From: an uncultured Verrucomicrobiae bacterium
GTDB taxonomy: Bacteria > Chlamydiota > Chlamydiia > Chlamydiales > Rhabdochlamydiaceae
Assembly (NCBI GenBank): GCA_963818965.1
Contig: CAWFUG010000001.1
Span: 192,001 to 256,000 of the forward strand
Direction of reading: 5' to 3'
Length of the DNA stretch: 64,000 bases
Shown here piece by piece: positions 25,622-27,991 of this stretch. How positions within the stretch are numbered: the stretch's first letter is position 1; each line of letters begins with the position of its first letter. The notes under the pieces are model-generated. The model saw only the letters and a program-made list of their open reading frames with translations. It was not told the DNA's origin and ran no database searches. The translations under genes were made by a program, and so were the position numbers.

Positions 25622-27991
25622 ATGTCTGTCGATTTGTTTTCTACTAAAAGATTCGCTATTCCCTTTTTTGATTTTTTCCGGTCTGCTTTTGTGGAAATGC
25701 GGGGTGCGGATGACTCTGGACTTGTCGCAATCGAGCACCTTAAAAACTGCTCGAGGGTCTGTAAGCTGTGGTATGAGTTTGCCATGCAAATCTCTCTTAA
25801 GGTGAAGGTTCAGGGGAGCCGGTTGATCCCGATCTCTGATTACACGCCTTACTTGTACGCTTTGGACCACGGACGTAAAGACCTGGCTCCTTTCATCGCG
25901 CGGCTAGAGGCGGGATTTACAAATAGGTTTATCGCGATGAAGTGCGATGCTTTGCACCGCTACGAAATTGAGGGGGATTACAAAGTCGAAGGAATCTCTT
26001 TTGGTGCAGGGGTGGATCATGTGACCCATCACGCTTATTTGACTCTAGATCTTTTTCGTTCTTGGAGACAGTTTTTCAAAGAGTTTAAAGGAGAGCCATT
26101 GTGGGACGCTACTTGTGCTAAAGAATTTTTAACAGCTCTCCGTCATTCCCAATGTACTTCTTGCTCAGAAGATTTTATACCCCGCGCGCCTAGGAATGGT
26201 GCATTTGAGCCGCGTGAAAGCTCCCGCGGTTCGACGATCGGAAATGGGGGTAGTATTGATGAAATACAACCCCCATTTCCGATCGTCGAACCCCGGGGCT
26301 TTGACGCGCTCAAATGCACCATTCCTAGGCGCGCGGGGTATAAGAACGTGACTTTCCAAGAATTACAGAAAGGGAAACTATTTTTCTTTTCAGATAGCGC
26401 CAGTAAAGTCTGTAACCGTGGGCATTGGATCAGTTTTGTCATTTGCGAAGATCAAGTCGCAATTGGAAATCGAGGGTATAAATGTGGGGCGTATCCCGGA
26501 GTGCGTTTCTATCAGCTAACGGATGAAATGAAGACTCTTTCTATTAGGGAGTTGATTGATTTTTGTGAAACAATAAAGCACACAGAATATTTGCCTTTAT
26601 CAAGGCAATGGAGCGGGTCTTGTTCTCGGACTAGTCCTGAAGCGGCCTTTCTCGGGGCCCTTTATTTCATTTTGCAGAAAAAATATCCTCTGCTGGGATC
26701 TGATGATCTCGCAGAAAAAGGCAAAGGCATTTGGAAGGGATGGTTCAAATTCGATGCGATCCGTGGTCTTAAAACGATCATGAAAAGAGATATGGGGATG
26801 CGCTACGATCCTAATCTCCTTATCCGGATTCTCGCTGTATTTCAGGACTGCTCTGAAACAGCGGCGGAGTTTTCCCGATTTTTAAAAGAGAGAAAGCAGA
26901 TCGATTGGAGCGTATTAAATGAGACTGCGGATACTTCTGGGCGCATTCCTGCGCAGTATGTGATCCAAAGGGATAATGCTCTAGGACGAGAACAGTTTGC
27001 TGAAGAGATCGAGAGATTCGAAGAAAAACAACCGTGGCAAAGGGTGTGGAAGGAGATCTGCAATTACTATAATACAAACTCTTCTTTAAGGGATTCGCTG
27101 GAGCCGTTTCTAAATGCTTCAGCCTCCGTTGAGCAAATCGAGGCATTTTTTTCTTCTCCGGAAAGCGAGTCGTTGTGTCAGCAATGTACGACCCTCAATA
27201 TATCTAATCCCGTGGAAGGCGATGCGGGGATGACACGTCTCCCCTATAGATTGTTAAATTATCTTAGGATGCTTAAGGAATTATCTTTATACAATCACGA
27301 GATCTCTCAAATTGCGCATCTAAATTTGCCAAATTTAATTGACTTGAACCTTGGCAAGAATAAATTGACTGAATTTCCCGATGTTTCGTTTTCTAATTTA
27401 TTGGTAATAAATGTTTCACTCAATCGTATTAAGAAGGTGTGTGATTTAAATCTTCCGAATTTAGTTAGGCTGCATGCCAAAATGAATGAGATAGAGGAGG
27501 TTTCGAATTGCAACTTCCCTAAGCTATTTGCGTGCGAATTGAATGGAAATAAGCTTTCTCAGATTCCAGATTGCATCCGCAAGCTGTCTTCATTGACACA
27601 TTTGGATTTGAGAAAAAATGCGATTGCAGATGTTGGCGAGTTGCAGCTTCCCAGCTTAATTGCATTGTATTTGAGTGACAATGCGCTTACATCGGTTCCT
27701 GATTTTAGTGAGCTGTCACAATTGAAACATTTGGAGCTCATTAAAAATCATCTCCATGCCGTTCCCGATTTTAACCTGCCGCTTTTGGAAAAGCTCTCGC
27801 TTGAAATGAATAAGATCAGAAAAATGCCTCAGTTCACCCATCTTCGAGAGGCATGTAGCATTGGGCTTTGGGATAACCCTTGCAAGCCAAGTTTCCCTTG
27901 GGATAGTCCCGGGGAGGCGCCTCTGAGTGTAACTGACATGTCTCAGTTGTGCTTGGCTTTAGCTGAAGTGTCTCGGTCTGATAAAAAATAA
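25622..27991 (+). CDS. Candidate effector paralog 2: F-box-like + protease-like domain + leucine-rich repeats, with in-frame palindromic insertion
   Basis: LKNCSRVCKLW; GHW...GNRG...QWSGSC; repeated LxxLxLxxNxL; start MSVDLFST aligns to paralog start. Confidence 0.8.
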   Translation: MSVDLFSTKRFAIPFFDFFRSAFVEMRGADDSGLVAIEHLKNCSRVCKLWYEFAMQISLKVKVQGSRLIPISDYTPYLYALDHGRKDLAPFIARLEAGFTNRFIAMKCDALHRYEIEGDYKVEGISFGAGVDHVTHHAYLTLDLFRSWRQFFKEFKGEPLWDATCAKEFLTALRHSQCTSCSEDFIPRAPRNGAFEPRESSRGSTIGNGGSIDEIQPPFPIVEPRGFDALKCTIPRRAGYKNVTFQELQKGKLFFFSDSASKVCNRGHWISFVICEDQVAIGNRGYKCGAYPGVRFYQLTDEMKTLSIRELIDFCETIKHTEYLPLSRQWSGSCSRTSPEAAFLGALYFILQKKYPLLGSDDLAEKGKGIWKGWFKFDAIRGLKTIMKRDMGMRYDPNLLIRILAVFQDCSETAAEFSRFLKERKQIDWSVLNETADTSGRIPAQYVIQRDNALGREQFAEEIERFEEKQPWQRVWKEICNYYNTNSSLRDSLEPFLNASASVEQIEAFFSSPESESLCQQCTTLNISNPVEGDAGMTRLPYRLLNYLRMLKELSLYNHEISQIAHLNLPNLIDLNLGKNKLTEFPDVSFSNLLVINVSLNRIKKVCDLNLPNLVRLHAKMNEIEEVSNCNFPKLFACELNGNKLSQIPDCIRKLSSLTHLDLRKNAIADVGELQLPSLIALYLSDNALTSVPDFSELSQLKHLELIKNHLHAVPDFNLPLLEKLSLEMNKIRKMPQFTHLREACSIGLWDNPCKPSFPWDSPGEAPLSVTDMSQLCLALAEVSRSDKK
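26176..26342. mobile_element. Family B palindromic MITE inserted in frame in CDS, TA target duplication
   Basis: TA-tacccc...ggggta-TA; 163 bp + duplicated TA = 165 bp; absent in paralog 1. Confidence 0.95.

Follow-up and report, generated by a model that had tools for sequence, protein, structure and literature searches.

How did a protein gene of a chlamydial bacterium come to carry a long palindrome within its reading frame, and what could have moved it there? The question is raised by P2, a gene at 25622..27991 (+ strand) of the 64,000-nt stretch analysed here (the window; all coordinates are window positions unless a contig is named, and G000 denotes the assembly of the source genome). 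P2 encodes 789 aa from its probable start at 25622, the form present in the protein collection; the open reading frame (ORF) finder placed the start at 25499. The gene contains a 167-nt element at 26176..26342, and the neighbouring paralog P1 (21680..24238, + strand) is insert-free at the corresponding site near 22226-22234. [quoted passage not shown] They also revealed an order-wide MITE family with IS630-type ends, a larger point which the initial annotation of the locus had overlooked.

A duplicated TA and empty sites at the P2 insertion

The element consists of a TA (26176..26177), a 163-nt core (26178..26340, TAC...GTA) and a second TA (26341..26342), with a net gain of 165 nt. As initially described, the insertion was found to be in frame and free of stops, and the frame continues for 549 codons past it. 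The 55-aa segment coded by the element (26177..26341, + strand) forms residues 186-240 of the host protein. Pairwise alignment gave CTSCSTDF-KKLT in P1 and CTSCSEDF, the 55 aa IPRAP...RRAGY and then KNVT in P2, in agreement with the initial annotation. The palindrome noted there is perfect only in its outer part: the outer 36-bp arms are 100% complementary, but the inner 35-bp arms are so to only 94%. The left outer arm (26176..26210, + strand) is the perfect complement of the right outer arm (26308..26342, - strand), and its first ~26 nt resemble the terminal inverted repeat (TIR) of IS630 elements. A conserved bulge/mismatch motif sits between outer and inner arms. Its long, bulged side, motif A (26216..26229, + strand), lies 38 nt inside the left TA, and its imperfect, likewise conserved partner is motif B (26291..26303, + strand); the columns of motif A were invariant or nearly so in an alignment of 51 copies, 39 of which had been retrieved by a pattern containing the inner motif. 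The hairpin is closed by an apical A/T stem with a 5-nt loop (26253..26267, + strand). Folding of the element as DNA gave -98.4 kcal/mol (z -23.5), which was equalled by none of 200 shuffles.

The segment is absent from five of five other paralogs in the genome and from the homolog in a related genome (G023). P1 had been taken to display the empty site; the insert is indeed missing there, but the P1 site (GAT TTT AAA) has no TA. The duplication is seen better in another paralog (C11a), whose left flank is identical and continues through a single TA. In addition, a 228-nt contig (depth 2.1) from X2, a DNA run of another study, skips exactly 165 nt from TA to TA. This contig differs from the P2 flanks at 5 positions in 65 nt on one side and 2 in 163 nt on the other. 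The paralogs match its flanks only partly (96% over 26 nt at best, otherwise 72-83%), and therefore the joint in this one contig was assigned to an orthologous empty allele.

An ancestral segment present in all orthologs was ruled out by the empty paralogs and the empty X2 joint. An assembly artefact was ruled out as well, because the insert recurs in a second assembly and the empty joint occurs in a third data set. In the second (sister) assembly the identical 55 residues lie in a P2 ortholog which is split in two and ends early, for which sequencing error and real decay are both fitting explanations; the P1 ortholog, on a contig of equal length, likewise ends early. The TA duplication and empty sites expected of a MITE were thus seen with C11a and X2, and two further inserts, in aroA and recC, are each absent in 7/7 relatives. 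The proposed mobility is borne out by the empty orthologous allele, the empty paralogs and about 220 family loci in the genome, and the claimed de novo gain of a peptide holds at the DNA level.

An order-wide hairpin family and its ends

In G000 (2.24 Mb, 88% complete), whose gene content is chlamydial, a strict scan detected 76 TA..TA hairpins, compared with 0 in each of three shuffles, and 41/52 hairpins of at least 150 nt add a multiple of three. It was the looser search that gave about 220 loci, 102 of them with both TA-type ends; three tandem or nested pairs share one TA. As in other MITEs, the copies are short (167 nt for the P2 element), lack a transposase, end in inverted repeats (the perfect 36-bp arms) and are dispersed in large number. 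The window contains a second full-length 167-nt copy (8862..9028), intergenic and upstream of lon; a 170-nt copy of another subfamily (37797..37966), which overlaps the 3' end of a Fic gene and has an arm matching an IS630 end at 22/26; and a 97-nt internal-deletion derivative with both TA ends kept (47328..47424). A decayed relative at 19763..19876 and a copy elsewhere in G000 (C1:121725-121888) have IS630-like arms (20/26) and a different, branched interior; they represent a second core on the same ends.

DNA matches were found in 25 of 61 related genomes, G000 included, and covariance-model matches in 42 of 141 genomes of the class, with 0/26 in one family of about 1.1-Mb genomes. An exact pattern retrieved at least 117 stretches. 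Among the 80 matches listed, 60 had chlamydial titles, 8 were unspecific and 12 named other groups (taken at face value); none of these 80 titles was rickettsial. Many pattern matches lie at contig ends (loci L092-L163), which suggests that short-read assemblies break at the hairpins and that the family is under-counted. A profile built from the peptide as read in one frame matched 98 representative proteins, five of them from the source genome. In some, the peptide splits a BacA or PD-(D/E)XK domain or adjoins an Lgt domain; many other, short proteins in the set may be spurious ORFs. No element match was found in viral contigs or plasmids.

The stems appear to be maintained as DNA. Two-sided changes were observed in 58 of 71 stem pairs of the 51 aligned copies, and among the 19 copies of 167 nt, 1497/1728 pairwise outer-stem differences were compensated, with kin counted repeatedly. 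The pairs comprised 3094 Watson-Crick, 68 G-T and 64 A-C, i.e. no G-U bias; the equal rarity of the two mismatches speaks for a palindrome of DNA and not for a structured RNA. A known structured RNA was rejected on the same counts and on an Rfam search without a match at the insertion site. The apical loop has one orientation relative to the bulge in 19 copies and the other in 20, and one copy carries the bulged motif on both arms, which fits arm-to-arm copying and inversion of the interior. The mismatched inner motif keeps a distance of 37-39 nt to the ends, which themselves vary (TA, T-N-A, CTAG): among 61 loci of relatives with both ends visible, 10 have 3-nt T-N-A repeats and 10 have CTAG, although flanks of CTAG, TAA and TTA also allow a reading as TA with differing terminal bases.

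A candidate mobiliser was indicated by the arms. In genome G113, a 1119-bp insertion sequence (IS; locus L274) encodes a 352-aa DDE_3/HTH_33 transposase. Its ends match the 170-nt-type arms of G000 at 21-22/26, a value reached by 0/2000 shuffles. For two other arm types, matches at 19/22 were found to two further IS630 ends, one arm type being from an Acidobacteriota-titled record. Overall, 9 of 197 arms reached 17/22 to IS630 ends (0.3 expected), and ten of ten copies sampled in G113 match the resident IS630 at 20-21/26. For the sister subfamilies, TIR matches to IS630-family elements thus range from 19/22 to 24/26, and IS630 transposase and copies occur together in G113, G116 and G032. The GG/GAG-ended variants resemble, by eye only, the ends of TTA/TAA-flanked elements, which we take to be IS5-like.

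Several observations weigh against an IS630-driven movement. The P2 element's own arm matches known IS ends at only 16/26 (p = 0.03, uncorrected, with 29 arms tested), and related arms match them at 15-18/26. No IS630 transposase was found in the 88%-complete G000 (DDE_3, HTH_Tnp_IS630 and HTH_33), and DDE_3 was not found in the copy-rich assemblies G007, G017, G028, G033 and G044; it is abundant in G035, a genome without element match. In G113 and G116 the copies agree better with an IS end from another genome than with that of their own. The empty ortholog is one low-depth contig, whose joint could also arise by precise excision. Lastly, the inner motif was not seen next to the ends of any IS630 sampled, so simple deletion of an IS does not account for the core. 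As for other transposases, DDE_Tnp_4 and DDE_Tnp_1_2 were also not found in G000, and DDE_Tnp_1 gave four matches there, three in a three-copy IS with unrelated ends and a fourth without defined ends. Pairs of neighbouring elements enclosed no recognisable transposase, as judged by eye without a family scan.

With these points set against the letter-level match of the ends, we consider IS630-type movement in trans likely. An IS630-family DDE transposase would recognise the outer ~26 bp of each arm and move the element to a TA, duplicating it. The TA duplication, empty alleles, copy number and IS630-like ends are direct observations; that the same type of enzyme acts on the P2 element's own subfamily is what we infer from them. 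With lengths of a multiple of three and open frames, landing in a gene would often leave the frame intact, and of such landings roughly one in four to one in three may survive purifying selection as loop insertions. The arms, whose complementarity is evident at the DNA level, would be kept so by arm-to-arm copying and interior inversion, and the mismatched motif at its set place is found across the order.

A broader model can be put forward tentatively, as a possibility somewhat short of probable. The ~100-bp core with its fixed mismatches at a constant distance from the ends may be a transposition-enhancing scaffold, repeatedly fitted with the ends of available ISs across Chlamydiota (several IS630 types and apparently IS5-family types). 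Each new end would be copied to both arms by hairpin-templated conversion, and the resulting modular MITE would seed translated 55-residue loops into enzymes and effectors.

Further repeats were observed alongside this family. A second abundant and unrelated hairpin family consists of ACCACAGAGA units (499 motif matches on both strands), some nested with the TA element; it occurs genome-wide and, in the window, at 8664-8739, 14074-14160, 40922-41034 and 59232-59489. An ORF lies between two long-hairpin copies at G000 C10:12964-15391, and from its motif we take it to be RNase III-like. Contig C4 of G000 repeats the end of C12 (107355-115382) in both orientations, with a ~150-nt piece of a 1.2-kb IS at the centre, and is possibly an assembly fold-back.

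Host genes and the fate of the peptide

P2 combines a weak F-box-like N-terminus (a match below threshold), a cysteine-protease-like domain resembling AnkH/LegA15 and C-terminal leucine-rich repeats (LRRs). The putative catalytic residues His268 (26423..26425), Asn283 in GNRG (26468..26470) and Cys334 (26621..26623), all on the + strand, are invariant in the paralogs, and the three follow the AnkH motif pattern described in PMC6712400. His268 lies 28 residues after the insert, which is thus located shortly before the putative catalytic His as had been noted. Structure models built from 6-sequence alignments matched Legionella AnkH and LegA15/AnkD both for P1 (mean predicted local distance difference test score 39.6) and for the P2 domain with its insert (62.3). 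The P2 domain model gave Z 16.0 against AnkD (root-mean-square deviation 4.1, 253 aligned residues). AnkH/LegA15 (AnkD) fold matches scored Z 16.0 and 14.6, compared with 6.4 for the next unrelated family; a sequence search of PDB with P1 gave no match. The insert was modelled as a low-confidence loop, as the predictor does with any unaligned stretch.

P2 shares with the two Legionella proteins the fold and the order and pattern of the His-Asn/Asp-Cys motif. It differs from them in its low identity (11-17%), the lack of detected ankyrin repeats, the weak F-box-like start and swapped C-terminal domains. According to the accessible part of PMC6712400, AnkH itself showed no protease activity in vitro. 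The fold matches, the LRRs and the sub-threshold F-box-like match make P2 a fair candidate effector, a designation of the initial annotation which can be kept on the strength of modelled fold and architecture. P1 carries the protease-like domain of P2 too, with another C-terminus. The six G000 paralogs (contigs C1, C9 and C11; loci L031 and L033-L036) have this domain in common and swapped C-termini (LRR, helical, beta-rich or truncated). They form a candidate domain-shuffling effector family, which is present in only 1/60 relatives. In the window, what looks by eye like a toxin-antitoxin pair, together with a tyrosine recombinase and a Fic gene, flanks or separates P1 and P2 (19957-25469), and RNase P RNA (27986-28346, - strand) abuts and overlaps the P2 stop.

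The same peptide was also found in other host genes, in frame in unrelated enzymes. Full-length in-frame copies are present in aroA, recC, menC, rlmD, pepF (M3), wbuC and sulP, and in four proteins, P2 among them, for which the site gave no informative family match. Short derivatives are in frame in plsX, an ABC-2 permease, two methyltransferases, a P-type ATPase and a queuosine-salvage fusion. The aroA insertion corresponds to E. coli residues 216-221. Against solved structures the rlmD and menC inserts were clean, with the rlmD alignment resuming at the same residue; the N-terminal placement in pepF is based on a motif seen by eye, and a scan of the RecC locus gave no match. No second genomic copy of aroA, recC, menC, plsX, wbuC or sulP was found at E 1e-8, and rlmD and pepF have only distant paralogs. 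Broken cases occur as well: a 169-nt copy frameshifts a histidine phosphatase, a stop-bearing tandem pair interrupts another gene, sulP has a later frameshift in addition to its in-frame copy, and yhcG is a fragment.

Three host genes merit separate remarks. The 71-nt derivative in plsX (L024:1329-1399) sits where Bacillus PlsX has the tip of a helical hairpin, in an alignment without a long gap, and may stand in for a segment absent from chlamydial PlsX. The aroA product (L023) is 64-72% identical to that of G015, 38-42% to that of G039 and 27-38% to those of other relatives, with E. coli-type enzymes as best matches among solved structures; the gene was possibly acquired horizontally. One C-methyltransferase gene (L055, protein P0041) appears to have been struck at nearby sites by different copies in two lineages.

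Genes contain 78% of the TA sites, and a scaffold copy landing in a gene at random would have a 33% chance of being in frame and free of stops. Full-length copies inside ORFs of at least 150 aa amounted to 12/47 (one with a probably mis-called start), and to 0/16 in the stop-rich subfamily. In-gene copies are thus fewer than these values predict, and the pattern is therefore one of tolerance under purifying selection, not targeting; by rough arithmetic, the share of frame-keeping insertions that persist is about one quarter to one third. Most copies in this lineage lengthen the sequence by 165 or 168 nt, and some frames of the most frequent subfamilies have no stop. Two apparent signs of coding selection were discarded. 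The open-frame excess (1.84 vs 0.56 in shuffled palindromes) was unusable because the copies are related to one another and one subfamily has the same value as the control. Length in multiples of three was unusable because the copies in G113 add 161 nt, only 18/36 in relatives are multiples of three, and short derivatives divide 17/13/17 over the three length classes.

It might be supposed that a dedicated or host enzyme reads the inner mismatch motif on the extruded hairpin and cuts at a set distance of 37-39 nt, in the manner of repetitive extragenic palindromes (REPs) and their RAYT transposases, the IS-like ends being incidental relics. This would account for the nearly constant motif-to-end distance while terminal letters and flanking repeats vary, for mismatches kept despite homogenised stems, and for the family and IS630 not co-occurring. 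We nevertheless think it improbable: distinct TIR subtypes of IS630 are matched letter for letter by arm subtypes, a duplicated target is the mark of DDE transposases, and Y1_Tnp was not found in G000, G007, G017, G028, G033, G036 or G059. We rate as slighter still the chance that the peptide is seldom made, the hairpin being removed or skipped in RNA or precisely excised from DNA between the TAs. The hairpin is extremely stable, and precise excision would also yield the joined form in X2. Such a bypass needs no open frame, yet the stop-rich copies are absent from intact long ORFs where open copies are found (0/16 vs 12/47). The stems have no G-U bias, and the 7 flank positions at which the X2 allele differs would fit a strain of its own. 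Moreover, a Rickettsia enzyme bearing a palindromic element was translated and active, as described in the available text of PMC2229807.

More weight, though still clearly the minor share, is due to the view that the insertion-bearing genes, P2 above all, are functionally dead and too young to show decay. The frameshift-split P2 ortholog with the same insert in the sister assembly would agree with it, as would sulP with its later frameshift and the yhcG fragment, and five paralogs could buffer the loss of P2. On the other hand, P2 in G000 is uninterrupted and has kept its His-Asn-Cys residues and modelled fold (the Z of 16.0 to AnkD), the early end of the P1 ortholog fits indel errors, and the single-copy aroA, recC, menC and plsX are otherwise intact. 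That the peptide is adaptive in the effector, for instance as a new binding surface or an activity switch near the active site, seems hardly credible. The 28-residue spacing to the putative catalytic His and the identical segment in the second assembly could be read in its favour, but the same peptide is found in unrelated enzymes, the P2 copy is near the consensus, and in-gene copies are under-represented relative to target availability. A tolerated passenger, moved by an IS630-type enzyme in trans, is the best reading of the P2 peptide.

Comparison with known palindromic elements

Protein-coding palindromes are a textbook case of selfish DNA making new peptide. The initial annotation compared the P2 element with Rickettsia palindromic elements (RPEs), and the comparison holds as an analogy but not as membership. 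By description, RPEs, like the coding palindromes of Wolbachia and Methanocaldococcus, are long stem-loop repeats. The portions available of PMC10969869 and PMC2996958 present RPEs as repeats with a stem-loop that occur in an intracellular bacterium and interrupt conserved proteins without loss of frame, and that of a 2007 review (PMC2229807) reports them in 19 ORFs of R. conorii, with a length of 105-146 bp and a target duplication marked '?' in its Table 1. The chlamydial family differs in its length (163-176 bp), its demonstrated TA duplication, its IS630-matching ends and its occurrence in Chlamydiota; the RPE mobiliser is unnamed in the text seen, which also describes the mobility of protein-coding palindromes as lacking experimental support at that time.

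RUP of Streptococcus pneumoniae provides the published precedent for an IS630-driven MITE, in that it targets TA and has TIRs resembling those of an IS630-family element (IS630-Spn1) acting in trans (PMC2229807, in part). According to the same part of the review, RUP is 107 bp long, has stops in all six frames and is intergenic. The chlamydial family shares the TA target and IS630-type TIRs and differs in having a ~100-bp palindromic core common to copies with different IS ends, and in its many genic copies.

The enterobacterial ERIC/IRU (127 bp) and YPAL/RU-2 (~167 bp) include in-frame gene fusions, as stated in the accessible portion of PMC2759123. ERIC is similar in the whole-element hairpin, terminal TA and TA duplication, and YPAL in size; the ERIC fusion cited there is C-terminal, in contrast to the mid-domain insertions in single-copy chlamydial enzymes. 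Identity with ERIC/IRU was rejected, since the element is 163-176 nt against a 127-bp consensus and the 5,426 E. coli genomes searched by blastn (E 10) contained no match. REP/REPIN with RAYT was rejected on the duplicated TA and on the Y1_Tnp result for G000 and six other copy-rich genomes.

A literature search, thin on subscription journals, gave no chlamydial description in titles or abstracts, and the Rhabdochlamydia genome paper was without MITE, IS630 or palindromes. The chlamydial family is real, mobile and apparently undescribed, and the single P2 insertion is ordinary RPE-type biology; the interest lies in the link to IS630 and in a core that stays constant while the ends vary. For annotation, the hairpins matter in that they are found where many contigs end and that chlamydial genes are enlarged or split by them. 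Both movement and tolerance are open to direct testing, since the family has named IS630 partners, alleles with and without the insert, and host enzymes present in single copy. If the constant core does take interchangeable IS ends, a MITE would have a novel means of outlasting its transposase, and the family would be the first case of a protein-inserting palindrome for which a transposase can be identified and filled and empty alleles segregate.

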